Source of the DNA: Octopus sinensis
Lineage: Eukaryota
Direction of reading: 5' to 3'
Assembly (NCBI RefSeq): GCF_006345805.1
Contig: NC_043014.1
Span: 18,290,001-18,354,000 of the forward strand
Length of the DNA: 64,000 nt
This document shows, in pieces, positions 1,603-62,092 of this stretch (positions are counted from its first letter, which is position 1; every line of letters begins with the position of its first letter). The position numbers and the translations under genes are program-made. The notes below the pieces were generated by a model. It did no database searches. It was given only the letters and a program-made list of their open reading frames with translations, and was not told the origin of the DNA.

Positions 1603-2691
1603 AGGTAATGGAGAAGTAAAAGGAGTGACTGCTCCCCCGAATACATTTTTTAAAATTGAGGCCTTTTCTAAAATATTCTTTTAAACTTTTTAGCAACAAA
1701 TATCAGAGGTTGTAAATTTCATACATAATGACATTGTTACTGAAACATGAATTTAATGAATAACTAAGGAAGTATTTCAAGTAATATAAGAGAAATGAAC
1801 TGATAATTGTTTGGCCTTTATTTATGTCCTCGCTTCCCCTAACGTTAGAACCTGCTATGCTTCTCATACAAACACACACACACACACAAATGTATATGCA
1901 TATATATATATATATATACGATGGGTCTCCAATACATTCATGCAGAATGTATTGGTTGGGCAGGGGATAAAATACACTTAACCTAAGTGTCACGCGGTGG
2001 GACTGAACTCGAAACTATGTTTGTAAAGTGATCTTATTGACCACACAGCCATACCCGCACCTATATTTAGCTCAATTAAAAATTGCTTTCATTTTGGTAC
2101 CTAGGTAATTTGTGATATGCACCTAAGTATTTATACTTCAAAATTACCTGAAATTTATTTCTTTCGTAGTATATAATATGTATTTATGTAAAGTTAATAT
2201 AATTTCAGAATTAATTTGTTAATCTCCATATTTTACATTACTTTTCATGTTAAATTTAGTTTCAACATTATTGACTTCCGAGCTCCCAGACTGGATTTTG
2301 CAAACATTTTTTGCTACACTTTGCTCTGTTATGTCGATAATTTCAAATTTCATTTAAATTTCAACTCAATGTTTACATTTCCTGTTGTACGATTCCCCTC
2401 GAGGAAATGTATATATAAATGTTTAACACAATTCTCATTTGATTTCTTTCGTACCGTTTTAATGTTTATGTACCCGAGTATTTTCCGCTTAAAATATAAA
2501 TGTCTCAGATTATATAAATATATGCATCTATAATATATAATATATTATAATTTTAAGATGAATACCTCGAGATATTTTTAACTCGTAATCGTATATTAGT
2601 GCACATAGACGCACAGATATACATACAGGTATACACTATTACAGCCACACACACACACATATATACATAACATATATATATATAAACAGGG

Positions 2692-2772
2692 TCTCACTGA
2701 TGAATTCTCCCTGGGCAAATAAATTATCTTGTTTGCTGAATTATAAAGAAACTGCAGGACTGCAGTCTGAGA
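2692..2772 (+). ncRNA. Type I hammerhead ribozyme-like motif, copy 1 (extended stem III)
   Basis: UCUCA-CUGAUGA-long stem II-GAAA-CUGCAGGACUGCAG-UC-UGAGA; stem I UCUCA/UGAGA; predicted cleavage after C2767. Confidence 0.7.
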
Positions 2773-3096
2773 ATTTTCCGGTTTAGTAAATGTTTTTATC
2801 TTCATTTCACTTAATTTATCAAGCTTCTGGATTCCTAGCACATATTTCGCCTTAATGTACTGATATATGAAAAATATGGCTTGTGTTAGTAATACCAGCG
2901 ATTATATTATTTTTTTTATTCTATCGCAATTTGATTTGTTTACATATTTCTCGATAAATTATGAGCGCCAGGCGATATACCAGAATTCCCTAGTGTTGTC
3001 GGGACGTTCGGAGTCTGCGCAGTGATATGATTATTAGGAAGAGTAACTCACTAGACGCACATGCTTCTAGTGAGTTAGGATCCCAGAAAAACAGGG

Positions 3097-3168
3097 TCTC
3101 ACTGATGAATTCTCCCTGGCAAATAAATTATCTTGTTTGCTGAATTAGAAAGAAACTGCAGTCTGAGA
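3097..3168 (+). ncRNA. Type I hammerhead ribozyme-like motif, copy 2
   Basis: UCUCA-CUGAUGA...GAAA-CUGCAG-UC-UGAGA; GUC cleavage triplet ends at 3163. Confidence 0.72.
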
Positions 3169-3491
3169 TTTTCCGGTTTAGTAAATTTTTTTATCTTCAT
3201 TTCACTTAATTTATCCAGCTTCTGTATTCCTAGCACATATTCGCCTAATGTACTGATATATGAAAAATATATGGCTTGTGTTAGTAATACCAGCGATTAT
3301 AATTATTTTTTATTCTATCGCAATTTGATTTGTTTACATATTTCTCGATAAATTATGAGCGGCAGGCGATATACCAGAATTCCCTAGTGTTGTCGGGACG
3401 TTCGGAGTCTGCGCAGTGATATGATTAGTTAGGAAGAGTAACTCACTAGACGCACATGCTTCTAGTGAGTTAGGATCCCAGAAAAACAGGG

Positions 3492-3564
3492 TCTCACTGA
3501 TGAATTCTCCCTGGGCACATAAATTATCTTGTTTGCTGAATTAGAAAGAAACTGCAGTCTGAGA
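3492..3564 (+). ncRNA. Type I hammerhead ribozyme-like motif, copy 3
   Basis: Same core; GUC ends at 3559. Confidence 0.72.
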
Positions 3565-3887
3565 ATTTTCCGGTTTAGTAAATGTTTTATCTTCATTTCA
3601 CTTAATTTATCAAGCTTCTGTATTCCTAGCACATATTTCGCCTTAATGTACTGAGATATATGAAAAATATATGGCTTGTGTTAGTAATACCAGCGATTAT
3701 AATTATTTTTTTATTCTATCGCAATTTGATTTGTTACATATTTCTCGATAAATGATGAGCGCCAGGCGAATACCAGAATTCCCTGTGTTGTCGGGACGTT
3801 CGGAGTCTGCGCAGTGATATGATTAGTTAGGAGAGTAACTCACTAGACGCACATGCTTCTAGTGAGTTAGGATCCCCAAAAAACAGG

Positions 3888-3960
3888 TCTCACTGATGAA
3901 TTCTCCCTGGGCAAATAAATTATCTTGTTTGCTGAATTAGAAAGAAACTGCAGTCTGAGA
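3888..3960 (+). ncRNA. Type I hammerhead ribozyme-like motif, copy 4
   Basis: Same core; GUC ends at 3955. Confidence 0.72.
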
Positions 3961-4286
3961 ATTTTCCGGTTTAGTAAATGTTTTTATCTTCATTTCACTT
4001 AATTTATCAAGCTTCTGTATTCCTAGCACATTTTTCGCCTAATGTACTGATATATGAAAAATATATGGCTTGTGTTAGTAATACCAGCGATTATAATTAT
4101 TTTTTTATTCTATCGCAATTTGATTTGTTTACATATTTCCTCGATAAATTATGAGCGCCGGCGATTACCAGAATTCCCTAGTGTTGTCGGGACGTTCGGA
4201 GTCTGCGCAGTGATATGATTAGTTTAGGAAGAGTAACTCACTAGACGCACATGCTTCTAGTGAGTTAGGATCCCAGAAAAACAGGG

Positions 4287-4357
4287 TCTCACTGATGAAT
4301 TCTCCTGGGCAAATAAATTATCTTGTTTGCTGATTAGAAAGAAACTGCAGTCTGAGA
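4287..4357 (+). ncRNA. Type I hammerhead ribozyme-like motif, copy 5
   Basis: Same core; GUC ends at 4352. Confidence 0.72.
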
Positions 4358-4675
4358 ATTTTCGGTTTAGTAAATGTTTTTATCTTCATTTCACTTAATT
4401 TATCAGCTTCGTATTCCTAGCACCTATTTCGCCTTAATGTACTGATATATGAAAAAATATGGCTTGTGTTAGTAATACCAGCGATTATAATATATTTTTT
4501 TATTCTATCGCAATTGATTTGTTTACATATTTCTCGATAAATTATGAGCGCCACGATATACCAGAATTCCCTAGTTTGTCGGACGTTCGGAGTCTGCGCA
4601 GTGATATGATTAGTTAGGAAGAGTAACTCACTAGACGCACATGCTTCTAGTGAGTTAGGATCCCAGAAAAACGGG

Positions 4676-4748
4676 TCTCACTGATGAATTCTCCCTGGGC
4701 AAATAAATTATCTTGTTTGCTGAATTAGAAATAAACTGCAGTCTGAGA
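4676..4748 (+). ncRNA. Hammerhead-like motif, copy 6, core mutated (GAAA to UAAA)
   Basis: CUGAUGA is intact but the catalytic G12 reads T (4732); likely inactive or a sequencing error. Confidence 0.55.
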
Positions 4749-4914
4749 ATTTTCCGGTTTAGTAAATGTTTTTATCTTCATTTCACTTAATTTATCAAGC
4801 TTCTGTATTCCTAGCACATATTCGCCTTAATGTACTGATATATGAAAAATATATGGCTTGTGTTAGTAATACCAGCGATTATAATTATTTTTTTATTCTA
4901 TCGCATTTGATTTG

Positions 4915-4962
<48 letters not shown>

Positions 4963-5059: not shown

Positions 5060-5418
5060 TGTGTCGTGGCACTCTGTCGGTTGTGACGACGAGGGTTTCA
5101 GGTGATCCGACCAGCCTGCTCGTGAAATTAACGTGCAAGTGGCTGAGCACTCCACAGACACGTGTACCCTTAACGTAATTCGCAGTGAGATTCCGCGTGA
5201 CACAGAGTGTGACAAGGCTGGCCCTTTGAAAATACAGGTACAACAGAAACAGAAAGAAAGAGTGAGAGAAAGACGTGGTGAAAGATTACAGCAGGGTTCT
5301 ACCCCCTCCCACCCGGAGCCTCGTGGAGATTTAGGTGTTTTCGCTCAATAAACACTCACAACGCTCGGTCTATGGCCGCGAGTCCACTGCCCTAACCACT
5401 GGGCCATTGAGTCTCCAC
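5060..5418 (-). mobile_element. tRNA-derived SINE family C
   Basis: Minus-strand head gtggagactcaatggcccagtggttagggcagtggactcgcgg; related copies at about 18930-19178(-), 40885-41215(-), 44352-44640(+) and 25195-25330(+). Confidence 0.75.
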
Positions 5419-9729: not shown

Positions 9730-10389
9730 TATATACGTATATATATATTACTGATTACAAGATCAGTGATTATATATATTATATATATATATATATATAT
9801 ACACATTTTATATTAGCTAATATGTATATGTATACATGCACACGTAAATACATACATATATATGTAAATATATATGTCGACCTAGACGTACATATTTATA
9901 AAAGAAAGTGGTTATTATTCAACTCAATAATTGGTTGCGTAAGCAATTTTCTGAAAAGGAAATTTGAGTCACATATGACCTGAAGAGTGTGATTGTGTGC
10001 AAATATATCCGTGTATGTGTGTGCGTTTGTATAGACGTATGTATGTATGCATATATGTTCTTATATACATGCATATATAAATACAAATATATATAAATTT
10101 AAAAATATATATATACATATATATACATACAAGTATGTATGTAAGCATATATATATTTAGATGTGTGTATACATTAGTTGTTAATATATAAAAATGCTTA
10201 TGTACATAAATATGTGACTGTATATATATACATTACACACATGGTCATATTCACGTACGTACACACACACTAGCAATAAACGTTTTTGAGAGCCAGGAAT
10301 ATTTTATATATATATATAATAACTTCAGTATCTGAACTATCTGACAGCAATCCAACTTTCATGTGCGTGGTAGTATATATAATTTAGGT

Positions 10390-10463
10390 GGCCGGTTAGC
10401 TTAGTTGGTTGCAGTGTCGTGCTAATAACGCGAATGTCATGGGTTCGTGTCCCATACTTGTCA
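10390..10463 (+). tRNA. tRNA-Ile(AAT) pseudogene
   Basis: ggccggttagcttagttggtt...tcgtg-ctAATaa-cgcga...atggg-ttcgtgt-cccat-acttgtca. Anticodon and T stems pair; acceptor and D stems have mismatches and the T-loop A58 is lost. Confidence 0.8.
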
Positions 10464-10477
10464 GAAAGTTAGAGAAC

Positions 10478-10690
10478 GCTGCGACTTGGCAACATCGTTA
10501 ACACATGGGCCAAAATGCTTAGCGGCATTTCATCCGTCTTCACATTTTGTGTTGAAATTCCGCCAAGGTCGACTTTGCCTTTTATCATTTCGGGGTCGAC
10601 AAAATACGTACAAGCTGAGCACTGGGGGTTGATTTAGTTGACTTACCCCGTCCACCGAAATTACTGACGTTGTGCCAAAGTTTGAAATCA
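10478..10690 (+). mobile_element. SINE family A, diverged copy
   Basis: ggcaacatcgttaacac...gaaattccgccaaggtcgactttgcc...tgtgccaaagtttgaaa. Confidence 0.75.
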
Positions 10691-18929: not shown

Positions 18930-19178
18930 TACAAGCCTAGCCAGGCTCATAGGCCCGGTTTTCCGGTTTCTATGTTTCCCCCAGCTGGACGGGACGCCAG
19001 TCCATCGCAAAAAGAGAAAGAGTACAACAGGGGTCGCCACCACCCCCTGCCGGAGCATCGTGGAGCTTTTAGTTGTTTTCGCTCAATAAGCACACACAAC
19101 ACCCGGTCTGGGAATCGAAACCGCGGTCCTCCGACCGCGAGTCCGCTGCCTTAACCATTGGACCATTGCGCCTCCACC
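18930..19178 (-). mobile_element. SINE family C
   Basis: Minus-strand head ggtggaggcgcaatggtccaatggttaaggcagcggactcgcggtcggaggaccgcggtttcgattccc. Confidence 0.75.
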
Positions 19179-24352: not shown

Positions 24353-26920
24353 ATTGTTTCCTTGCTTTTTTATCTTTATCTCCTAATTTAGTCATCGTAC
24401 ACAGTTTTTCATGTCTTTGATCGTTGTGTCTTTTTGTGCACACTGGTCTCAAATCTCGTAATGGGTTGTGGGCACCGATGAATGACCTTCATTATTGCAT
24501 CAATATGCAACGATCTCTGCATCATTCTGAAGTGATTATAATCGTTATCGTGGTCGATGTTTAGTTATAAATTAACCCTGACCCAGCATATCTCTGATGA
24601 AACAATTTTCCGTCGTGCCAATTATTTCATATTTCTCCCACAGTACAATTCGGATTAAATTATCCAATACCACTTTTAATTTTAACGAAGTAGAAGTTAA
24701 TTCACGCGAGGTCTGGTTCCTGTTTCTAGAGATTATTACATTGCGTAGAAGTTTCCTCATAAGTTTGGATACTTTATCGTTTCAGACACAAGAAACTCAT
24801 GAAGAAAAAAAAAACGAAAAACAAAAACAACCAAAATCTCCCGAAAAATAAGCGAAATTTGAAACAAAAGAAAACACAAAAAAATATAAATGTAAATAAA
24901 TATCACAAAATAAAGAAAGAACAAGAAAAAATAGCATCAAACATGAGAAACGCTGAATGAAGGATTTCCAAGATGTAACTTGTAAGCTTTCATTTGGTGT
25001 CAATTAAAATGGATTAAACGATTACAAGTTTAGACATTACGTGTGGTCTGTAAAAGTAGAATTCTGTAATTAAATTCCTCAAGATATGTAGTCCGGTGGG
25101 TGCTGTTCTGATTTAATCACGATATTGTCATCCGCATTATGTATTTATGAAGACAGGTAGAATTAGAAGTCGTAGACCACATATGAAAATTTGAAGCAGC
25201 ATAGCCTAGTGGTTAAGGTTTTGTGCTTACGGTCGCAGGATCGTGGTTTCAGTTTCTGGAGCGAGTAGTTCGTTGTGTTTTTGAGCGAATCACTTCATTT
25301 CACTTTACCCTATGAGAAACCCTGTGACACTCTAAACGTCCTGTTTAGTCGGAACGTTGTTATCTAGGTCATTTAAATCAGTAATGTTCAGGAGTTGATG
25401 ATGATTAAATTATCCGGTAGTATGTATTACATATTTTTATGTTCCGCCTTCAAAATTCTGTGAACTAGCAGAGTTGCTGGGGGCAAAATCACTTGCAATA
25501 TTTGCTCCTTTTCGCTGGGCTTTGTGTTGAGATCCTGCTTTACCTATCTTTAATATCGATAAGATACAATATCAGTCAACATTAGTGGATTGACAGATTT
25601 GTTAAAGCACCTAACATTATGCTTTTGCGCTATTTGTTACAGCTGTGTTCTTTCGTGGTGGTGTTTATCAGTCATTTAGTTTAACACTACCAGCTGGTAC
25701 TTGGCTGTTTTTAGCAAAGTTCATTCTTTTGCGAAGATTTGAGGATAAGTTTCTTCCTTTCTCTTCCTCCCTAAACGTTAAATAAATAAAAAAAACTGTT
25801 TTGTGTTCTATTATTCTAAAGTTGGTGTAATAAAGTACCAGGAGGCGAAAGGATTGGCACTACACCTCCCATAAAATGTGTGATCTTGTGCATTTATTAC
25901 AAATAAAAATAAATATAATTAGAGCGGTAGATGTCAGAATAGCAATAGTGTTTCTCAACCGATGTTTCTGGAAATCTGGAGCTACAGATAAATTTACTAA
26001 TTCACTGCAAATACATTTTTATGTTTAATTCTATGTTCGTAATATTATTATGCACGCACGGCATACTAACTAAGACAAGAAGAAAATCTTAACAACTGCC
26101 GTTAGTTAACACCACGAATAAATTAACATCCTAAATGGGAATTATTGGAAAATATGGTTTAAATATGGTCTTCATTAAGATGAAATTTTTAAAACTTGTC
26201 GTGTCTGATGGATTTAACTTTGTCAAACCATGTAAAGACAGTTTTCTGATTTCTTTAACGGCTTAAGAAGTTTGACTTAATGCAAGAGAAAGGAAAAATA
26301 ATTGAATTGAGATTATGATAACTTTTGAGTGAGAGTCACATAGCTGAGCAGTGTAATGATCAAAGGCGATCAAACCATTAACCGTCCTGCGTCCTGACGG
26401 TTATGTAGGAATACATTATCCAAAGTACTTTGCCTTAACTTAAGACAGTGGAGCATCATTTGAGGAATATTTTACTGCTATTTCTAACAGAAAGATATAC
26501 TATATACAATCTCCTGCTTCGACTCAGAATTGTTCGTGGTGGTGGAGCTGATCTGGTATAATGTGTTGATGAGGGATATACATTGAATAATATGTGAAAC
26601 GGATGTTCCAGGACGCACATGAATGGTAGTGCATGTGAGGTTAAAATGGACCACACCATGGGAAGGTATGATCAAACCCTTAATGTAGATCAGAGTGACG
26701 GCATAGTTTTTATAAGTGACTAGCATTAAAGACCCGTCGTTGCCGGGTCATAGTGCTAGTGCATGTACATATGTGTATATATATATGTGTACATATTACA
26801 TGTACATCTATATATATACATCTAAACATATAAAGTACAAAATACAAAGTTATATCTTGATATCGCTAGTGATAACAATACTCAAAATATGTAACAGACT
26901 GGAATTGTTAGCCCGTCTCT

Positions 26921-27212
26921 TGTAATTTCAATCAATTGTATATTGTCCTCCCTCTTGTATAGGAGTGTGGCTACAATCCAGCCTACCTCTACTTCTGGAG
27001 GTGGGGGGGCATTTAAATTTTTTTTCCGGGACGTCCTACGTCCCAAGTATATAGGTAGAAATAACATATTTCCACTTTGCAAGTTCGAGTCGAGTACTCC
27101 CTTACACGCTCCGTTGACTCGAACCTTGCTTTTATTGGGGCGAATTTACCGCCTCTGATTAGATATCTTTCATAGTCACACCAAGACACTTTTCGAAGGT
27201 GCTTTCCTCCAT
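26921..27212 (-). pseudogene. Fragment of a paralogous gag-like ORF1
   Basis: MEESTFEKCLG...RGGKFAPIKARFESTERVREYSTRT/QSGNMLFLPIYLGRRTSR...PPEVEVGWIVATLLYKREDNIQLI aligns by eye with MEAIEEAF...KGLEYGTITVQFKNEKAARNIAAK...FYLFPSYLNRRTTRI...PPHLEGELITAAVIKGNEDKVDIL of the adjacent ORF. Confidence 0.7.
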
Positions 27213-27359
27213 GTTATTTCTTTATTACCCACCAGGGGCTACGAAGAATGGCGGACATAACAAAACATGGGGGACAGAACAATATGATTAAATTTATGAG
27301 CAAATGAAAATGAAAAAATGATAATATGAAAGCGATGCTAACGGCCCCCTCCGCCAGCA

Positions 27360-28713
27360 TCACTTACCTGTTCTTTGGTTTTCACTGTCACCTGAATGTT
27401 CATTCCCAATACGAAGACCATCCATATCCATTCTTACTCCGAAACTGTCCTCCATATATTCCACGAATTCATCGCTCATTCTTGTATCTTTCACCTCCCA
27501 ATTCTCCCTTTCACACCTCAACACAAACTCATATATATTCTTCTTTTCCAGCACTGCATATCTGGTCCCATCCATTTCATACCATTCATACTCCTCCATT
27601 ACCCTTTCAACCTCTTTCTGTTCAGTCACAATATAAATGTTCGGCCTGGGTTCGTTTTCAAACTCTTGTCTGTCTGTATTATTATTTTTCTTTTGTTTTC
27701 TTGTTGGAGGGGAGCGGGTGATTTCACTGTCTGCAGGGGAAGGGTGGGATTCAGAGGGTGCGGGTGGTGTTGGAGTGGGTTGGGGCTTCGCACAGTTTTT
27801 CTTTTTCTTTCTTTTTCTCTTTTTTCTTTCTTTTTCTCTTTTTTCTTCCTTCTTCCCACTCTTGTTGCATCTCCTCTTCTGTCGTTTCTTTTTCCCTTTG
27901 GTTCTCTTTGGTTTCTTCATCTTTTGGGGCTTCCGCAACGATTTCCTTTTCTTTTTCCTTTGGTGGGGAAGGGCAGTAGGCTCTTATGTGACCCCTCAGG
28001 CCACACTTGTAGCACCTGGGCGCCCTACCCTCCACCCACACTCTCATAATAATATTTCCAGTTTTTATACTGTCCGTAAGCTTTTCTATAACTTCCGCCT
28101 CCGTCTGTATGTTCATTACTAGTGTGGCACCTCTCACGCCTTCATATTTTATAATGGCATGGAGGATGTCCACTTTATCTTCATTTCCTTTGATAACCGC
28201 AGCCGTTATTAATTCGCCCTCTAGGTGTGGAGGTATTCCTTCCACCCTAATTCTGGTGGTCCTTCTATTCAAATACGAAGGGAACAAGTAAAACTTTTCT
28301 GTACTCACCACCTTGGCTGCTATATTCCTGGCTGCTTTCTCATTTTTAAATTGTACCGTTATGGTTCCATATTCTAATCCTTTTGTCATGTACACAATTT
28401 CTTCTCCTGTCTGTTTGAAAGCCTCTTCAATTGCTTCCATGTTAATCACTTCCATTTTTCTACCTCCATTCATAAATACTTTATATTTAATGGTTCTACG
28501 ATGGAACCAGTCTCCGCGCCCTGCTAGAGGCAACAGCTCAACCTCTCCGTTCTCCTCCTCCTTCATGAACTCCTGGAAGTCCGTCAACTTAGCCAGGTCT
28601 ATCTCTTTTTCTGTTGACTTCTTCGCTATATCTGCGTAGGTGCTTTCCATTTTTTTCACCGCCAACTCCTCCTCAGATGTCGACGAATTTTCAGAGAAAT
28701 TTCTCCCTTCCAT
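27360..28713 (-). CDS. Gag-like ORF1 with CCHC zinc knuckle (L1/Tx1-type retroelement ORF1), one frameshift
   Basis: 320-aa ORF 28713-27751 contains CYKCGLRGHIRAYC, preceded by an RRM-like region and followed by a Lys/Glu-rich tract. It continues in the frame of ORF 27938-27360 after an A-rich run (~450 aa if joined). Confidence 0.75.
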
Positions 28714-29439
28714 CTCATCCGTTTGGTAAGGCGGCTCATAGTCGCCTCAGACCGAAAAACGGCCTCCCGAACAGAAAACGTGCGACGCACAGAACCAGTG
28801 CGACGCGAAACCGCACCAACCGACGTTCCAATTCCGCAACCACAATTCACTTTTTGTTCTTTTTTCTTTTTGAACCGAATTTTACAGAGCGCAAAAAAAA
28901 CGCGACCTTTTTTCTCTACATTGTATACTTTATAGACAATAGTCTTTTCTTTATTTTAATTTTTTATTATCCATCTGGACTATTCCATTTCTGCACGCTA
29001 ATTTTTATTTTATTCCCATTCACGTGAAACCACTTATTCAAGATCAAGTCATTCATGCAATTTTATACCAATTGCTATTTTTACTTTTTTTATGTTACGA
29101 TTATATTATACTTTAGTTTGATTTTAATTATTACTTACTACGTATAATTCAATTGTTATTATTATTTTTATTGTTAAAGTAAAAGTATCTGACATAAAAT
29201 AGAGAAATGTTTTTGTTTCACTTTTAACACGTAATACTGAAATAGTGGGGAAGATATGATATTGCTATGGGCTCGCTCTAGGCAAGAAGTTGAACATTTT
29301 TTTTTGCCCATGAACCTACAAGGACTCAAAGTAAGGCATGTGTAAAATTTGAATGAAATTGGTTGTGTAGTTCTTAAGTTTTAGGGAAACACACAGACAG
29401 ACAGATAGACAAACACACATTCTCAGTTTTATATATATA

Positions 29440-30154
29440 CTAGCATTAAAGACCCGTCTTTGCCGGGTCATAGTGCTAGTGCATGTTTATATGTGTATAT
29501 ATATGTGTACATATTACATGTACATCTATATATATACATCTACACATAAAATGCAAAATACGAAGTTATATCTTGATATCGCTAGTGATAACAATACTCA
29601 AAATATATAACAGACTGGAATTGTTAGCTCTTCTTTTTTCTCTACATTGTATACTTTATAGACAATAGACTTTTCTTTAATCTAATTTTTCATTATCCAT
29701 CTGGACTATTCCATTTCTGCACGCTAATTTTATTTTTAATGTATTCCCATTCATGTGAAACCACTTATTCAAGTTCAAATAATTGATGCAATTTTATACC
29801 AATTGCTATTTTTACTTTTGTTATGTTACGATTATATTATACATTAGTTTGATTTTAATTATTATTTACTACGTATAATTCAATTGTTATTATTATTTCT
29901 ATTGTTAAAGTGAAAGCATCTGACATAAAATAGAGAAATATTTTTGTTTCACTTTTAAATAGTGGAGAAAATATGATATTGCTATGGGCTCGCTCTAGGC
30001 AAGAAATTGAACATTTTTTTGCCCATGAAACTACATGGACCCTAAGTAAGGCATGTGTAAAATTTGAATGAAATTGGTTGTGTAGTTCTCAAGTTTTAGG
30101 GAAACACACAGACAGATAGACAGACACACGTTCTCAGTTTTATATATATAAAGA
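29440..30154 (-). mobile_element. Non-autonomous Helitron unit 2 (715 bp)
   Basis: Minus strand begins A|TCtttatatatataaaactgagaac...tgtctgtct and ends with hairpin plus CTAG at 29440. The pair sits between host A and T with no TSD. Confidence 0.85.
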
Positions 30155-30404
30155 TGACAGGCATAAGGAGACACCTCGGCGGACAGCTTAGATATGAGTA
30201 GAAGTCACCTCATTTTCTCGTGACTGGAAGAATTTAAAATTACACTCGTTTAAGAATAGATGCTGAATAGAGGCGGGATGAGTTATGGGGTTTTCAGAAA
30301 CAAATTCTTGTGTGTTTATGAGGCATATTTGTACTTATATATATGTATACATATTTATGTTTGTGTAAATTTACATCTATATACATTTAGGAATATATAT
30401 ATAT

Positions 30405-43472: not shown

Positions 43473-43572
43473 NNNNNNNNNNNNNNNNNNNNNNNNNNNN
43501 NNNNNNNNNNNNNNNNNNNNNNNNNNNNNNNNNNNNNNNNNNNNNNNNNNNNNNNNNNNNNNNNNNNNNNNN
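43473..43572. other. Assembly gap (100 N)
   Basis: Run of N. Confidence 1.
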
Positions 43573-44685: not shown

Positions 44686-45026
44686 CGAGGGGCTACTGAA
44701 AAGGTCTTGATTGTGGATAAAAGAAAATACAAAAGGATTAGCTAATTATGATTTTATCGATAAATAAAGTACCAGCACTGTGGTCGATGTAATCGACTCA
44801 ATCCCTTTGTCTGTCCTTGTTTGTTCCCTCTATGTTTAGCCCCTTGTGGGTAGTAAAGAAATATAATTATGATTTTATCCAACATATTAACCTTTTAGAT
44901 TCATACACTTACTGCAGAGGTCGTTCACTTTATGTAAGCCTTATAAAAGAAGTCCGAAAATTGGGCCTCCAGCCTGGCCTTTCGCGACACCCTTCAAGCT
45001 AGGGGCTACTTTTCAGTACCACTCCT
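44686..45026. mobile_element. Mariner-type MITE with a 5'-truncated SINE A inserted (44759-44863, 16-bp TSD)
   Basis: Ends ta-cgaggggctactgaaaag / cttttcagtaccactc; taattatgattttatc at 44743-44758 and 44864-44879; a related MITE fragment lies at about 51866-52012. Confidence 0.75.
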
Positions 45027-48613: not shown

Positions 48614-50331
48614 GACGTTGTTAAATCGTTTCCATATCGGACGAATCGGACAAAATGTTAAGTAGCATTTTTTTCGACTATTTACGTTCCCAGTTCAAAT
48701 TACGCCGAGGTCCTCTTCGCTATCCATCCGTTTCATGTCGAGCTCTGGAGTCGATCTAATCGACTAACTGATCTATTCCATCTCAATCACAGATTTTTAA
48801 ATTAATTTTTAAAAACTAAGTAGTTTGAAACTTCGAATACTGGTAGAAATTCTCATGTAGAACACGGTTTACTCTGAACGTTTTTGGTTGATTGGTTGAA
48901 ATTACCCAACTACGACAACTTTAACACGAAATAACTTCTAAAATAGAAGATTCTGTCAAAATCGTTCAGAGTAAACCGTGTTCTATGTGAGAAATACTAC
49001 CAGTATTCGAAGTTTCAAACTGTTTAGTTAAAAAAATTAATTTAAAAAATCTGTGGTTAAGATGGAATAGATCCTAACTAACTTGCTCTCATAAAATTTT
49101 AGGCCTTGTACCAATAGTAGAAAAATTTTGTTTTGGCTGGCAGTATTTTTAGGACACAGGAGACAAAAGCTTAGCGACATTTCTTCCGGTTGAAGCGCCG
49201 CCTGGGTCGACTTCGATTTTCATCTTTCAGGATCGATAAAATACATACCAGTCGAGCAATGCAGTCGATAAAATTCACCTAGCGACCTCCTCAGAAATTT
49301 CAGATATTGTGCGTATAGCAGAAAGGAATATTTTATCAATCTCTGAAGAGAGGAATGACATTGTTAAATCGTTTCCATATAGGACGAATCGGACAAAATG
49401 TTAAGTAGCATTTTTTTCGACTATTTACGTTCCCAGTTCAAATTACGCCGAGGTCCTCTTCGCTATCCATCCGTTCATGTCGAGCTCTGGAGTCGATCTA
49501 ATCGACTAACTGATCTATTCCATCTCAATCACAGATTTTTAAATTAATTTTTAAAAACTAAGTAGTTTGAAACTTCGAATACTGGTAGAAATTCTCATGT
49601 AGAACACGGTTTACTCTGAACGTTTTTGGTTGATTGGTTGAAATTACCCAACTACGACAACTTTAACACGAAATAACTTCTAAAATAGAAGATTCTGTCA
49701 AAATCGTTCAGACTAAACCGTGTTCTATGTGAGAAATACTACCAGTATTTGAAGTTTCAACTGTTTAGTTAAAAAAATTAATTTAAAAAATCTGTGGTTA
49801 GATGGAATAGATCCTAACTAACTTGCTCTCATAAAATTTTAGGCCTTGTACCAATAGTAGAAAAATTTTGTTTTGGCTGGCAGTATTTTTAGGACACAGG
49901 AGACAAAAGCTTAGCGACATTTCTTCCGGTTGAAGCGCCGCCTGGGTCGACTTCGATTTTCATCTTTCAGGATCGATAAAATACATACCAGTCGAGCAAT
50001 GCAGTCGATAAAATTCACCTAGCGACCTCCCTCAGAAATTTCAGATATTGTGCGTATAGCAGAAAGGAATATTTTATCAATCTCTGAAGAGAGGAATGAC
50101 ATTGTTAAATCGTTTCCATATAGGACGAATCGGACAAAATGTTAAGTAGCATTTTTTCGACTATTTACGTTCCGAGTTCAAATTACGCCGAGGTCCTCTT
50201 CGCTATCCATCCGTTTCATGTCGAGCTCTGGAGTCGATCTAATCGACTAACGGATCTATTCCATCTCAATCACAGATTTTTAAATTAATTTTTAAAAACT
50301 AAGTAGTTTGAAACTTCGAATACTGGTAGAA
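48614..50331 (+). repeat. Tandem duplication of a ~742-bp unit (2.3 copies) made of SINE A pieces and a 306-bp MITE
   Basis: Unit starts at 48614, 49357 and 50098; copies are near-identical. Confidence 0.9.
48769..49074. mobile_element. MITE with ~120-bp TIRs (GGATC termini), related to the element at 16392-18321
   Basis: (g)gatctattccatc...tttgaaacttcgaatactggtagaa / ctaccagtattcgaagtttcaaa...gatggaatagatcc; flanks cgactaac / taactaac; further copies at 49511-49814 and 50252-50331 (partial). Confidence 0.85.
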
Positions 50332-50676
50332 TTTGAACTCCGAGGTGTAAATAGCAAACAACTACAGTTTAAAAAGAGCATTTGTCCAACTAAAGTTTAA
50401 AAGAGGATTTATTTATCCGATGCACAAACACTTCCACCATTCCACACTATAGGCCCCTACTTTATTATGAAGTAAATTTGTTTTAATATCTTATGCCACA
50501 CTTTATGATTGATCAGTTAGAATTACCGACTATTTACGTTGGTGTATTTTATTTATTACATTAGTTAGTCAGATGGGAATGAAAGTAAGTATCATGACCT
50601 TTGCAGAGTCTAACGGAGACAGACCCAAAAGATCGATTTAGTTTGAGTAGCTTGAACATCAACACACACACACACA

Positions 50677-57870: not shown

Positions 57871-57873
<3 letters not shown>

Positions 57874-60785
57874 ACTGCAGCCACAAAAGAAGCTGGATAC
57901 TCACTCAAACCCATCCAAACAGGAGTACCACCACCCAAACAAACCCTGTGGATAAATAACATCCAAAACAAAATACAACAAATGAGAAAAGATCTGTCGA
58001 TTCTTAATGAAATCAGTAGACAATCAACGCTACTGAGTAACAAAAAGAAAACAAAAATACTCCGCAAATATAACATCACAGAAAAAGATTTACCTGAGAT
58101 AAAAGAAAAGCTGAAGCAAGATATCCTTGCCAAAGCACAAAGGATCCGCCGGTACGAGAAACGCCAGCGCTTCTTTGAACAAAACAAAAAGTTCAACTCC
58201 AACCCCAAAAAGTTCTACCAAGAACTTGGCAAAAATAAAATAGAAATCACTGCAGCACCAATGGCAGAAGAAGTGGAAGAATTCTGGAGAGAAATATGGT
58301 CGGCGAACGAACAACCAAAAAAAAGGAGTATCAAAACAACAAACTCAGCATCTGAGCAACTTTGGGCCCCCATAACAACTGAAGAGGTCGCCCAGGCACT
58401 GCAAAGACTAAGCAACTGGAAGGCACCTGGGCACGACAAGATCCCCAACTTCTGGTTGAAATATCTAACAGGAATGCATAAAAAGCTGGCTGAAATCTTT
58501 AACAACATACTAGCAGAGCCAGAGACAATGCCTGAATGGCTCACGAAGGGGAAGACCATCTTAATTCCCAAATCAAATGAGAGAGCAAAACCAGAAAACT
58601 ACAGACCAATAACCTGTCTCCCTACAATGTACAAGGCATTTACTGCAGTGATATCGCAAAGGTTGAACAAGCACCTGGACGAAAACAACCTGTTTCCAGA
58701 AGAGCAGAAAGGATGCCGCAAAGGCTCATATGGCTGTTAAGATCAACTAATGATTAATAAAGCCATAACTGAAGACAGCCACAGAAAGAAGAAAGGCGTC
58801 AGTATAGCCTGGATCGACTACAAAAAGGCGTTTGGTAGCATCCCCCACACATGGATCCTCGAAACACTAGCCATTAACAAAGTAGCACCAACAATTATAA
58901 AATTCATAGGGCACTCTATGAATAAATGGCAAACAGTACTACAGCTCCAAACAAAAATGGGACTCATGAAAACCAAAGCCATCCCCATTAGAAGAGGAAC
59001 ATTCCAGGGAGACACGCTCTCTCCGCTCCTTTTCTGCTTGGCACTGTCACCTCTATCTGATATGCTAAATAGAACTGGATGCGGATATAAATGTTACAGC
59101 AAAACGATCAGCCACCTTTTATATATGGATGACCTAAAACTATACGCTGCAAATAACAAACAGCTGGAAATACTATTAAAGGCAGTTCATGGATTTACCA
59201 AAGAAATAGATATGAAATTTGGATTAGAAAAATGCGCCAAAGTAACCATGAAAAGAGGAAAACTGGTTAAGAGTAGCAACATCATACTAGATAAAACCAA
59301 TGAAATAAAAGAATTAGACCAAAGCTAAACTTACAAATACTTAGGAATCCATGAACTAGATAAGACACAACACACACAAATGAAAGAGAAAATAAAAAAA
59401 AAGAATATTATAGACGAGTTAGATCAATACTAAAAACAGAGCTCAATACTAAAAACAAGATAATACGTATTAACACTTTAGCTGTCCCAGTTATAAGTTA
59501 CAGCTACAATATCCTTAACTGGACACTAAATGAACTGACCAAAATAGATAGGAAAACAAGAAAAATAATGACAGGATCTAGGATGCATCACCCAAAATCC
59601 GACATAGAAAGACTATATATACAACGTATAGAAGGTGGTAGAAGCCGTATGCAGCTGGAAAACTACTATAAAATAACCACCATAGGACAGCAAAAATATC
59701 TACTTCAGAAGGAAGGAAAACTGATACAAATAGCGGCAAAACACGAGCAAAACAAAAAACTGTTCTCAGTATTTAAGGAAGCTGACAAATACAAACAAGA
59801 AATCATACCACCTAATAAATATGAAGAAGAAGAAGAAGAAGAAGAAGAAGAAGAAACAACAAAAGCTATAAAACAAATGAAATCCAAACTAAAACTAGAA
59901 CAGCAAAGAACCATGATAAAACGATGGCATGGAAAGCCCCATCATGGTAAATACTGGACTAAACAAAACGCAAAAGAAATAGACAAAGAAAAATCCCAGC
60001 AATGGTTGAGAAGCTCATGACTCAAAGCAGAGACAGAGGGATTTTTAATTGCAGCACAAGACCAAACCTCCCCACCAGAAATTACCAAAAGCATGTAATG
60101 AAAAGAAATATAACAAGTAACTGCAGAATATATAGAGATGGACAAGAAACAATAAATCATATTATCTCTGGCTGCCCAGTCCTGGCTAAGAAGGAATATG
60201 TTCATAGACATGACAAAGTTGGAACCTACATACACTGGAAGCTATGCCAACATTATGGAGTAACAACAGAAAAAAGATGGTATAGGCACACACCAGAAAA
60301 GGTCACAGTAGACGAGAAAGCAACCATACTCTGGGATATGCCGATACACACAGATAGAGAAATTAAGGCCAACAGACCAGATATAGTTGTCAGAGATCAT
60401 GAAGAAAAAAATGCTTTCTAATTGATGTATCAATACCGGCAGATGACAACGTGCCTCTAAAAGAAATGGGAGGAACTTTCAAAATACAAAGACCTGGAAA
60501 TAGAGGTAACCAGAATGTGGAATCTAAAAACAGAAACAATTCCTATCATAGTAGGTGCATTAGGCATGATAAAAAAATATTCAGACAAATACATAACAAA
60601 GACACCAGGACTTACAAATACATATAACATACAGAAATTTGCACTACTAGGCACTGCACACATCCTACGCAGAACACTTTCCATACAATAACCATCAGAG
60701 CACCACAACAAATCACAGCACATACCTAAGGCACACAGAACTGCGCTCGGTAGTGAAGTGAAAGCACGCTATAAAAATAAAACTA

Positions 60786-60788
<3 letters not shown>
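57871..60788 (+). mobile_element. 5'-truncated R4/Dong-clade non-LTR retrotransposon (RT plus REL endonuclease), pseudogenised
   Basis: WKAPGHDKI, ENYRPITCL, WIDYKKAF, FQGDTLSPLLF, LYMDDLK, CxxxxxxxETINHIISGC, RHD and ANRPDIVV motifs; stops at 58740, 59328 and 60020 plus frameshifts; ORF ends at about 60691; flanked by (TAA)n on both sides. Confidence 0.92.
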
Positions 60789-60862
<74 letters not shown>

Positions 60863-60890
60863 GATGATGATGATTATGATGATGATAAAT

Positions 60891-61445
60891 GCCCTGATGC
60901 AGTACCAGGCAGTGGCTCTCGTGGCTTCTGATCGTAACTGATTGGAAGTGTTATCTTGTACATTGTTTTGTCTTGGCATAAAAGATTAGCTACAGCAAAT
61001 ATTCTGCTCAATACCACAGTTTTGCTTGTCAGTTGTTTGACCTTAACCAGTTGAGCATGTCCCTTAATGTCTGACGATATGTGCATCTCTGATCACAAGC
61101 AGAAGTAGTGGGGGGAACATCGTAGCCATGTGTTGAGAGGGATTATTTGGTGTTTGAATAATTCACCTCTGGAAATATGGGTGCTTCGCTGAACATCCTT
61201 AAACAACCCTTATTCAGGGACCTTTTCAGCGGGATGGGCTACTCGACCAGAAGAAAATACTAACTGGGCCACACCTGCAATGTCATGTGCTGTTTATCTT
61301 GATATGAAATCACCATATCGCGCACATTTGGTTGTGATACAAGTGCCTAGTGTACTCTTATCAGATGGGTAGTCATGATGGGTATACTGGGCTTCGTATA
61401 TTTTATCCCAGTGTCACTTTGATGGCATGCACTGCTCTCTCACTC
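60891..61445 (+). mobile_element. 555-bp non-coding element flanked by (AAT)n, copy 1
   Basis: gccctgatgcagtaccaggc...ctctcactc(aat)n; orientation inferred from the (AAT)n polarity only. Confidence 0.75.
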
Positions 61446-61496
<51 letters not shown>

Positions 61497-61497
<1 letters not shown>

Positions 61498-62050
61498 CCC
61501 TGATGCAGTACCAGGCAGTGGCTCTCGTGGCTTCTGATCTTAACTGATTGGAAGTGTTATCTTGTACATTGTTTTGTCTTGGTATAAAAGATGGGCTACA
61601 GCAAATATTCTGCTCAATACCACAGATTTGCTTGTCAGTTGTTTGACCGTAACCAGTTGAGCATGTCCCTTAGTGGCTGACGATATGTGCATCTCTGATC
61701 ACGAGCAGAAGTAGTGGGGGAGCATCATAGCCATGTGTTGAGAGGGATTATTTGGGGTTTAAATAATTCACCTCTGGAAACATGGGTGTTTCATTTAACA
61801 TCCTTAAATAACCCTTATTCAAGAACCTTTTGAGTGGGATGGGTTACTCGACCAGAAGAAAATTCTAACTGGGCCCCACCTGCAAGGTCATGCGCTGTTT
61901 ATTTTGATATGAGATCACCATATCGCGCACATATGGTTGTGATGCATGTGCCTGGTGTACCCTTATCAGACGGGTAGTCATGATGGGTATACTGGGCTTC
62001 GTATATTTTACCCCAGTGTCACTTTGATGGCATGCACTGCCCTCTCACTC
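61497..62050 (+). mobile_element. 554-bp non-coding element flanked by (AAT)n, copy 2
   Basis: Same ends as copy 1, with scattered substitutions. Confidence 0.75.

Positions 62051-62092
<42 letters not shown>

Follow-up and report, generated by a model that had tools for sequence, protein, structure and literature searches.

A stretch of the Octopus sinensis genome (64,000 nt of contig NC_043014.1 in assembly GCF_006345805.1, positions 18,290,001 to 18,354,000; hereafter the window) contains two adjacent Helitron-like units, one of which is longer than the other and holds a retroelement ORF1 gene. The locus raises the question of whether a rolling-circle DNA transposon has been disseminating this nucleic-acid-binding gene, as the original prediction proposed, or has only been the place where it landed. 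The features on which the answer depends are listed in Table 1. Overall, the locus leans against co-mobilisation of the gene-bearing insertion (element A) by the Helitron. The reading that we favour, with somewhat better than even confidence, involves three nested ordinary events, namely a Helitron with an ORF1 fragment (fragment B), a tandem pair, and a later retrotransposition of A into B.

Table 1. Coordinates of the features of the locus (positions in the window; all on the minus strand)
Feature	Position	Strand	Description
Helitron-like unit 2	29440..30154	-	715 nt, non-autonomous; A|TC start, AT-rich body, hairpin and CTAG end
B stub kept in unit 2	29633..29681	-	rest of B (~306 nt, matching 27218-26913) missing in unit 2
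Unit 2 3′ terminus and imprecise head-to-tail join	29439..29480	-	hairpin 29469-29451, CTAG 29443-29440; z -5.41
Helitron-like unit 1	26720..29439	-	holds fragment B and element A; 5′ end without TC at join with unit 2
B 5′ stub in unit 1 "backbone"	28907..28955	-	profile positions 48-62, first strand of RRM1
Element A	27214..28906	-	~1.68 kb, candidate ORF1-only non-autonomous LINE-like insertion; 3′ end ambiguous, 27224 to 27214
CpG-rich leader of A	28714..28906	-	CpG observed/expected 1.80 (0.87 for the window)
ORF1 of A	27360..28713	-	two RRM-like domains and a single CX2CX4HX4C knuckle (about 28010-27970), then a charged linker and the C-terminal part
3′ tail of A	27215..27290	-	matches the 3′ end of the SINE-like repeat common in the window; AAGAAAT-type end unit
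B 3′ part	26918..27223	-	profile positions 63/64-165; same register as stub, frameshifted twice
Unit 1 3′ terminus	26719..26760	-	19-nt GC hairpin 26749-26731; terminal CTAG 26723-26720; target T 26719

As predicted, the two units lie head to tail; both are on the minus strand (30154-29440 followed by 29439-26720). They are about 5% diverged, with 34 mismatches over 702 aligned bases and 8 indels, and self-comparison of the window matches 28907-29439 to 29633-30150 at 90.1% and 26705-26921 to 29425-29637 at 91.3%. The outer 5′ end of the tandem reads A|TC (30155|30154), with the 5′ TC of canonical Helitrons, and the outer 3′ end reads CTAG|T (26720|26719), the outer flanks ending in A and beginning with T, without duplication, as in an A|T target. 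Both units end in CTAG, a form of the 3′ CTRR, and 11 nt before the 3′ end both carry a GC hairpin of 19 nt, within the 16-20 nt range of the Helitron palindrome. Folding of the terminal 51-mers gives z = -4.89 (unit 1) and -5.41 (unit 2), with 0 of 200 shuffles as good, and the two hairpins rank as the top two among the 406 CTRR+T sites of the window. In unit 1 the 19-nt hairpin is nested in a longer hairpin with CTAG on both arms; what had been described as a 42-bp palindrome is an imperfect structure of 16 pairs (7-bp outer and 6-7-bp inner arms), present in both units.

No RepHel reading frame was found in the ~720-nt backbone, which is interrupted by stop codons in every minus-strand frame and encloses no ORF of 100 aa, and unit 2 likewise contains no ORF of that length. 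An autonomous Helitron was rejected for want of a RepHel frame, and Helentron, DINE-1 and HINE were rejected on the target (A|T rather than TT) and on the ends (TC and CTAG rather than T-rich). Near its 5′ end, unit 2 carries a (TA)n and GTCT-type microsatellite. When subterminal repeats of 12-15 bp were sought among the 25 longest of 204 inverted pairs, those near the unit ends were TA-rich runs. The joined outer flanks gave only microsatellite-like matches to the rest of the window, where neither an empty site nor a host repeat was seen, and the 64-kb window holds no third copy of the unit. Rfam identified one tRNA in the whole window and none inside the locus. The assignment of both units to non-autonomous canonical-type Helitrons is supported.

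The inner join reads CTAG|TATATATATAAAA and is 2-4 nt short, TC included; hence it is not a precise rolling-circle CTAG|TC junction, and a precise concatemer was set aside. The canonical ends predicted for both units hold for the outer A|TC and for both hairpin-CTAG termini, but not for the start of unit 1 at this join. Two related Helitron copies came to adjoin head to tail, and the tandem may have originated as an imprecise rolling-circle concatemer, by local duplication, or through one copy inserting into the other's first bases.

The extra length of unit 1 had been read as cargo, and fragment B bears on where this cargo begins. B is a diverged paralogous ORF1 piece matched by 60 of 149 homologues. 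A profile was built from 60 homologues with the window protein left out. Profile positions 48-62, corresponding to 45 nt next to the left junction, score best at 28952 (24.4 bits) and 29678 (22.0 bits), ranks 1 and 2 of 127,912 windows, while the next-best window reaches 13.6 bits and A's own site 12.9 bits. Because this 15-column stub window was chosen after an earlier hint, shuffle and all-window controls were run: 0 of 5000 backbone shuffles reached 24.4 bits and, over all 217 15-column profile windows, the top score outside 26700-30200 was 18.5 bits. B resumes at profile position 63/64 directly after A (12.4 bits; 9 of 10 registers tried were negative), and 35 BLAST alignments start within the stub when it is added to the B query (77 of 266 proteins matched). 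No B was found beyond profile positions 48-165 on either side (anchored scores of 0, 0 and 1.4 bits, against 23 for the positive control), and a 6-residue look-alike of B in the backbone is equalled by 1.2% of windows. B is an internal fragment of a LINE type I ORF1, about 360 nt long and cut at both ends, and is a dead remnant.

The left "cargo border" is the insertion point of element A into B, not a boundary between Helitron and cargo. The stub occurs in both units and lines up exactly with the register of the remainder of B, so unit 2 is no empty precursor. The 1.99-kb length difference is made up of the 1.68 kb of A inserted in B and of some 0.31 kb of B that unit 2 lacks. The prediction that unit 1 equals unit 2 plus about 1.99 kb was right on the extra length and its orientation, but it overlooked that unit 2 keeps the first ~48 nt of B. 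Similarly, both parts of the proposed composite, a CCHC ORF1 and a piece of a paralogous ORF1, are present, but the latter starts in the supposed backbone and the left border was misplaced. A is not a duplicate of B, as the two share 24% identity over 114 aligned residues and B groups with P0134 (96/92 support), separate from A, in a tree of the 34 of 267 rows that span most of B (6 of 31 branches supported, bootstrap not settled). At the DNA level, B aligns to A no better than in shuffles (97 against 94 +/- 8).

In the favoured reading, unit 2 would separately have lost about 306 nt of B through a deletion from the same purine-rich site. The gap in unit 2 ends within 5 nt of the end of B similarity (26913 and 26918), so the deletion model needs a coincidence. 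Homology-primed repair would avoid it: an ancestor like unit 2, with the stub only, would have suffered a break by the stub, invaded another B copy, copied ~306 nt and been end-joined, and A may have entered B later or already sat in the donor. This accounts for B ending almost where the shared backbone resumes, and for the in-register stub. However, this model needs ectopic invasion, a rare event, with no more than ~48 nt of homology, as well as a prior capture of a 48-nt piece and the chance placement of the A site no further than 4 nt from the former end of the stub. We regard repair as quite improbable.

Element A itself resembles a retrotransposon. The model of its ORF1 protein (pLDDT 88.0 for the part up to the knuckle) best matches tandem RRMs in Foldseek (E 8e-6 to 1e-5), and its best VIA match is the La RRM (Z 9.4, rmsd 2.4, 81 aligned residues). 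The CCHC knuckle directly follows the second RRM-like domain, the order found in type I LINE ORF1, and the protein is accordingly a LINE type I ORF1 with two RRM folds and one CCHC knuckle. Gag sequence matches extend little beyond the knuckle, and no capsid fold is among the matches listed in two fold searches, the region before the knuckle being modelled as two RRM-like domains. The reading frame had been called near-intact, and the long CCHC ORF exists, but an A-rich run near 27860-27800 shifts its frame, and comparison with homologue P0003 (E 1.6e-13) shows it continuing to 27360 in a second frame. Neither frame segment has an internal stop. The C-terminal frame matched neither a small profile of the C-terminal parts of four homologues nor, at E 0.1, any Pfam family. 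The CpG-rich leader is a putative promoter. Only 147 nt separate the ORF1 stop from the tail end, hence A has no ORF2, and no LTRs surround the ORF, self-comparison giving no repeat that both ends of A share. With ORF1 present and ORF2 absent, as in bipartite non-autonomous LINEs, A is a candidate ORF1-only element of the HAL1/HeT-A/Ag-Sponge kind, whether a family or one internally deleted copy.

The protein family of A is highly diverse and high-copy, and has no Pfam match except a weak zf-CCHC. Pfam over 153 of 265 homologues (37 at E 0.01, 29 at E 0.05 and 87 at E 1e-5) revealed no reverse transcriptase, endonuclease, capsid or RepHel, and the family could still have an ORF2. Among the matches listed (120 of 322), none of which carries a name, homologue clusters at 90% identity reach 159 member sequences; such clusters fit a mobile family and could equally be ORF1 of full LINEs. 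A word-index search with the A ORF alone gave no match among 4648 candidates, but it also missed P0003 (59% identical and within the length range) and is therefore uninformative on close copies. A weak search among 7415 candidates for forms longer than 1507 aa, ORF1-ORF2 fusions that would name the LINE clade, gave no match. No title or abstract on element A, or on an ORF1-only LINE in octopus, was found in a literature coverage without most subscription journals and Repbase, and A may already be catalogued.

The 3′ tail links A to the local SINE-like repeat. The tail motif occurs at exactly three sites of the window, A and the two tailed SINE-like copies (895-1135 and 44757-44875), with 0 expected in 100 shuffles for a pattern drawn from these three; an unbiased 28-nt scan gave 0, 3 and 4 mismatches, then none below 10. 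The likeness fades before the SINE body. The sole LINE recognised in the window ends differently, in (AAT)n, and no partner LINE with the tail of A was found within the window. By the SINE-LINE tail rule (PMC4824008), a tail shared with the SINE-like repeat implies a common partner, and the enzyme of this partner LINE would also serve the local SINE. As predicted, no properly placed TSD borders the extra 1.99 kb, and A has none either. From the reading register, tail and target overlap by about 10 nt at the 3′ end of A, and because of this overlap the missing TSD is not a pointer to Helitron capture. The AAGAAAT-type tail end may have paired with a ~10-nt match in B, which would leave a blunt insertion lacking a TSD; against this, the overlap could be tail sequence in place of lost target.

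Two further explanations were considered, and even together they are very improbable. A could be a retrocopy or captured copy of an intronless host gene (domesticated, ZCCHC3-like) with a SINE fragment at its 3′ end; one Atlas neighbour of homologue P0004 is a ZCCHC3 cluster (score 0.89, a lead only), but the SINE likeness is limited to the last 30-90 nt of A and the family is highly diverse, with many copies. Alternatively, the tandem could be an assembly artefact of two haplotypes, in a window that holds a 100-N gap at 43473-43572; against this, the units differ by 5% plus 8 indels, and their flanks are unique and form a clean A|T target.

Element A is absent from sister unit 2 and splits B in register. 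At the indel rate seen between the units, 7.7 frameshifts would be expected over the 1354 nt of its ORF, which has 1 (P(<=1) = 0.004) and no stop (P = 0.27 for zero stops), although this clock is soft, its rate being drawn from an AT-rich, microsatellite-bearing backbone. This suggests that A is less decayed than the unit split predicts and younger than that split, which fits insertion here as well as in a donor copy that later moved. Donor insertion is one route to a Helitron subfamily that carries the B stub, A and the B 3′ part, was amplified by rolling circle, and of which unit 2 is a deletion derivative; alternatively, the composite may have been captured already nested elsewhere. The 3′ terminus of unit 1 is intact, the outer A|TC could act as the start of the tandem as a whole, B is truncated at both ends like captured fragments, and bat mRNAs retroposed into Helitrons were then propagated to 118 copies (PMC4224331). 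The decay data are equally compatible with an insertion into a donor copy that then moved. However, a single A-bearing copy is in view, and with one A-bearing template the decay of A should equal the unit divergence, which it does not. In addition, the four bases past the unit 2 stub suit an uninterrupted B better than an excision at the exact 5′ end of A, and the inner junction differs from CTAG|TC. Such a subfamily is unlikely.

Under the favoured series of three events, a non-autonomous Helitron would have taken up B, part of which both units hold; two related copies came to sit head to tail; and A, from a distant paralogous family, would have been reverse-transcribed into the B of unit 1 by the enzyme of a partner LINE. 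The Helitron is the landing pad of a frameshifted copy of A and shows no sign here of having been its vehicle. Retroelement carriage by the Helitron thus stands for part of B, but the near-intact gene is absent from unit 2. Its dissemination by the Helitron was not borne out, given that A has its own retrotransposon-type tail, splits B, is missing in the sister and is less decayed.

As most probably read, the locus is a worked example of element-in-element nesting, in which subtracting the short copy from the long one misplaced the cargo borders because the shorter of two sister copies may have arisen by deletion. Element A is the more interesting by-product, a candidate ORF1-only LINE with a tail common to a SINE-like repeat, from a large family without a Pfam model beyond the knuckle. 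A broader scenario, which we hold to be rather improbable, is that the lineage of A is abundant, ORF1-only and shares its RT with the dominant SINE, and that the Helitron offers a second, DNA-based route, having acquired the family on two occasions (first B, and then A by homing to a tail-like site in B) and multiplied in its A-bearing form, thereby dispersing a transcribed two-RRM zinc-knuckle gene that possibly acts in trans on LINE/SINE mobility. If the A-bearing Helitron were multicopy and transcribed, a DNA transposon would be amplifying the RNA-chaperone gene of a retrotransposon, and the bat retrogene cases would be widened from host genes to a retroelement gene.

Canonical Helitrons are described with a 5′ TC, a 3′ CTAG, a 19-nt palindrome 11 nt from the end, and an A|T target without TSD (PMC4778049; PMC4067079). 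The octopus tandem shares all of these with non-autonomous Helitrons of the Helibat/Helraiser type, and differs in a 3′ hairpin that a further pair of arms encloses, CTAG being present on both strands. Head-to-tail pairs of the same orientation, with CTAG adjoining the next start, are reported in bats and maize (PMC2267711; PMC5876387); as presented there, the join is a precise CTAG|TC, whereas 2-4 nt including TC are missing in octopus. It is worth noting that the maize pair was read as consecutive insertions, hence adjacency alone is no proof of a rolling-circle concatemer. Bat Helitrons carry retrotransposons and retrogenes, some of them retroposed into the Helitron and then propagated, according to PMC4224331. 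In contrast, the octopus insert is ORF1-only, lacks a poly(A) and TSD, sits within an older piece of the gene family to which it belongs, and is in view as a single A-bearing copy, while propagation after insertion is seen in bats. HAL1 (L1 clade), HeT-A (Jockey clade) and Ag-Sponge (CR1 clade) are characterised in PMC5786205 as bipartite non-autonomous LINEs with an ORF1-bearing 5′ part, no ORF2 and a LINE-type 3′ end. Element A resembles them in the first two respects and probably in the third, and is unlike them in a tail common to a SINE-like repeat and in an ORF1 without a Pfam family beyond the weak zf-CCHC. Finally, in the Khazina-Weichenrieder classes, type I LINE ORF1 has its RRM(s) directly before the CCHC (PMC4120745). 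A agrees with this in its two RRM folds with the knuckle straight after, and has one knuckle where the two-RRM subtypes tabulated in that source have three.

Unit 1 and unit 2, two head-to-tail copies of a non-autonomous Helitron-like element, differ by about 1.99 kb of DNA, which the original prediction described as a gag-like cargo. The extra DNA in unit 1 was confirmed, but it is composed of A, an ORF1-only LINE-like insertion, and of ~306 nt, missing from unit 2, of B, a diverged paralogous LINE ORF1 fragment. Weak matches of several homologues were found in the Helitron backbone beside the left junction. When positions 48-62 of a profile from 60 homologues, the window protein excluded, were scored over 127,912 six-frame windows, rank 1 was 28952-28908 (24.4 bits) and rank 2 its unit-2 twin, 29678-29634 (22.0 bits), followed by a next score of 13.6. 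The best score outside the locus among all 15-column profile windows (217 tried) was 18.5, and the observed score of this stub was reached by none of 5000 shuffles. B continues at position 63/64 right after the tail of A, and 35 BLAST alignments obtained with the pieced B as query start within the stub. Together, the rank of the stub, the resumption of B in register and the alignments starting in the stub argue that B (profile positions 48-165) was once a single fragment, later interrupted by A; unit 2 retains only its first ~48 nt. The reading register further implies that the target within B would have had ~10 nt matching the end of the tail of A. In integration of the L2/CR1/RTE type, the LINE tail pairs with the target and insertion occurs without a TSD. 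The available text of one review (PMC4760211) deals with annealing during initiation and with the joining of 5′ ends, and leaves tail-target pairing without a TSD aside. Sequence identity between A and B is 24%, and the two stand apart in a rough tree.

Positions of the Helitron locus and of other features of the window
Feature	Position	Strand	Description
Unit 2	30154-29440	-	directly followed by unit 1
Unit 1	29439-26720	-	directly after unit 2
A	28906 to about 27223	-	within unit 1
ORF1 of A	28713 (start) to 27360 (end)	-	frame change in A-rich run near 27860-27800
Terminal hairpins	26719-26760, 29439-29480		hairpin and CTAG|T readable on both strands
Flank	26719-26705	-	just past final CTAG
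Tandem repeat	2684-4924		394-nt unit x 5.6, 94% identity; (TA)n at borders
tRNA-Ile(AAT)	10389-10464	+	ARAGORN and Rfam
SINE-like repeat	10478-10651		diverged copy of common repeat, 13 nt downstream of the tRNA
Assembly gap	43473-43572		100 N; 13 kb from Helitron locus
Tandem repeat	48614-50334		period ~743 nt, 98.7% identical; ~300-nt imperfect palindrome in each unit
Decayed single-ORF LINE	57871-60790	+	RT (Pfam RVT_1), C-terminal zinc finger, PD-(D/E)xK-like stretch
Two ~607-nt copies	60839-62092		93% identical; each flanked by (AAT)n tracts

Over its 1354 nt, ORF1 of A has a single frameshift and not one stop codon, against 7.7 frameshifts expected from the unit-to-unit indel rate (P = 0.004), a rate taken from AT-rich DNA and probably too high; the lack of stops is unremarkable (P = 0.27). 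In B, two frameshifts occur in ~310 nt. Because its defects are few compared with both the expected frameshifts and B, A seems to be more recent than either B or the split between the units. The stretch missing from unit 2 stops 5 nt or less from the end of the similarity of B, and tracing B in both directions beyond its known limits revealed no further extension. A deletion in unit 2 needs this match of ends as a coincidence, which would be accounted for if B had been copied, primed by homology, into a Helitron that already had the stub; such copying is itself quite improbable. A further point against the reading that we favour is that a young A could have entered a donor copy that later moved. 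Amplification of a Helitron already bearing A, in keeping with the originally suggested spread of a retroelement gene, is judged unlikely. The course of events that we favour, with moderate confidence, is one in which a Helitron would have captured B, the tandem would have formed, A would have retrotransposed into B and part of B would finally have been deleted from unit 2.

Both frames of ORF1 of A are tracked by its homologue P0003, and a full-library search gave 204 proteins at E ≤ 0.001. In a profile search, 322 of the 8000 proteins scored were matches, and their clusters contain as many as 159 members. Of the Atlas neighbour clusters of a homologue, one is mostly molluscan. That the locus represents a host gene or an artefact is very improbable. 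The AlphaFold model of the protein (61-row alignment) has a pLDDT of 88.0; its top Foldseek matches are tandem-RRM proteins, and its top VIA-align matches single RRMs (Z 9.4, rmsd 2.4, 81 residues). These predicted RRM folds, with the zinc knuckle directly after the RRM-like part, make ORF1 of A a type I LINE ORF1 under the definition of PMC4120745, and there is little similarity to retroviral Gag outside the knuckle. Two homologue predictions, P0039 and P0080, fuse ORF1 with C2H2 zinc fingers or LDL-receptor class A repeats, and P0080 also has a stretch matching a window repeat (5094-5371 and 19074-19139 were noted with the two proteins); the fusions may stem from chimeric gene predictions or from exonised copies.

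ORF2 is absent from A, as only 147 nt lie between the ORF1 stop and the end of the element. The last 28 nt of A match two other sites in the window at 3 and 4 mismatches, with no other site below 10, and both are 3′ ends of a common short repeat, for which 20 matches are listed in the window besides the tail of A (query copy included). A B-box-like motif of this repeat occurs at 9 places versus 0.1 expected, and the repeat resembles octopus SINEs; on the basis of these motifs it is a putative tRNA-derived SINE. Gapped similarity between the tail of A and the repeat spans 75-90 nt, with scores of 59 and 65 versus maxima of 48 and 57 in 1000 shuffles. Since SINEs have tails in common with their mobilising LINE (PMC4824008), A would most simply use the same enzyme as the SINE-like repeat. 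A, whose leader is CpG-rich (o/e 1.80), is a candidate ORF1-only LINE, linked to a SINE through its tail. The decayed single-ORF LINE, which is 5′-truncated, lies between (AAT)n tracts and presumably belongs to the Dong/R4 clade, was rejected as partner of A because its end differs from the tail of A.

In this AT-rich window (34% GC), where microsatellites and short interspersed repeats are abundant, BLAST puts the identity of the parts shared by the two units at 90-91%; they differ by 34 mismatches over 702 bases and by 8 indels. Provided that a calibration for octopus, JC 0.09 for 25 My (PMC13282606), holds for this host, the units would, by our own arithmetic, have separated roughly 7 My ago. 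The outer ends read A|TC (5′) and CTAG|T (3′), and flank duplication is absent. Both units carry a 19-nt GC hairpin 11 nt from the 3′ end, with the same spacing as in Helraiser (PMC4778049) and in a position covered by the canonical Helitron definition (PMC4067079). Their terminal 51-mers are the top two of the 406 CTRR+T sites in the window (folding z of -4.9 and -5.4 versus shuffles). What had been described as a 42-bp palindrome is this 19-nt hairpin extended by outer arms of 7 bp, which gives 16 pairs altogether, and it occurs in both units. The reverse readings of the terminal hairpins are the third and fourth best of the 406 sites, and judging by sequence the hairpin might act as a terminator in either direction. 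RepHel coding capacity is absent from the backbone. The host flank past the final CTAG resembles the 5′ start of the unit in a shared TATAAAA(A)CT-like stretch, and the BLAST unit match runs 14 nt into it, by chance or through target preference.

At the inner join the sequence is CTAG|TATATATATAAAA; by contrast, a precise CTAG|TC join characterises rolling-circle circles and the Helitron tandems of bats (PMC4778049, PMC2267711, PMC5876387). The tandem may have arisen by imprecise joining, by local duplication or by unit 2 inserting itself within the initial bases of unit 1. The TCA at the end of the outer flank makes this last route possible, but unit 1 would then need to have had G|T as its target. 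Elsewhere, the ~743-nt tandem is possibly a MITE-like repeat in tandem, and no Helitron ends were noticed at the viewed borders of the 394-nt tandem.

Bat Helitrons were described to carry retrotransposons and retroposed sequences, which were later propagated (PMC4224331), and Helitron tandems and captures are reported from Xenopus (PMC12001565). The RTE element described in a study of LINE expression in the octopus brain (PMC9115989) is, from the available text, of a different family from A. A matches the plan of the ORF1-present bipartite non-autonomous LINEs HeT-A, HAL1 and Ag-Sponge (PMC5786205).
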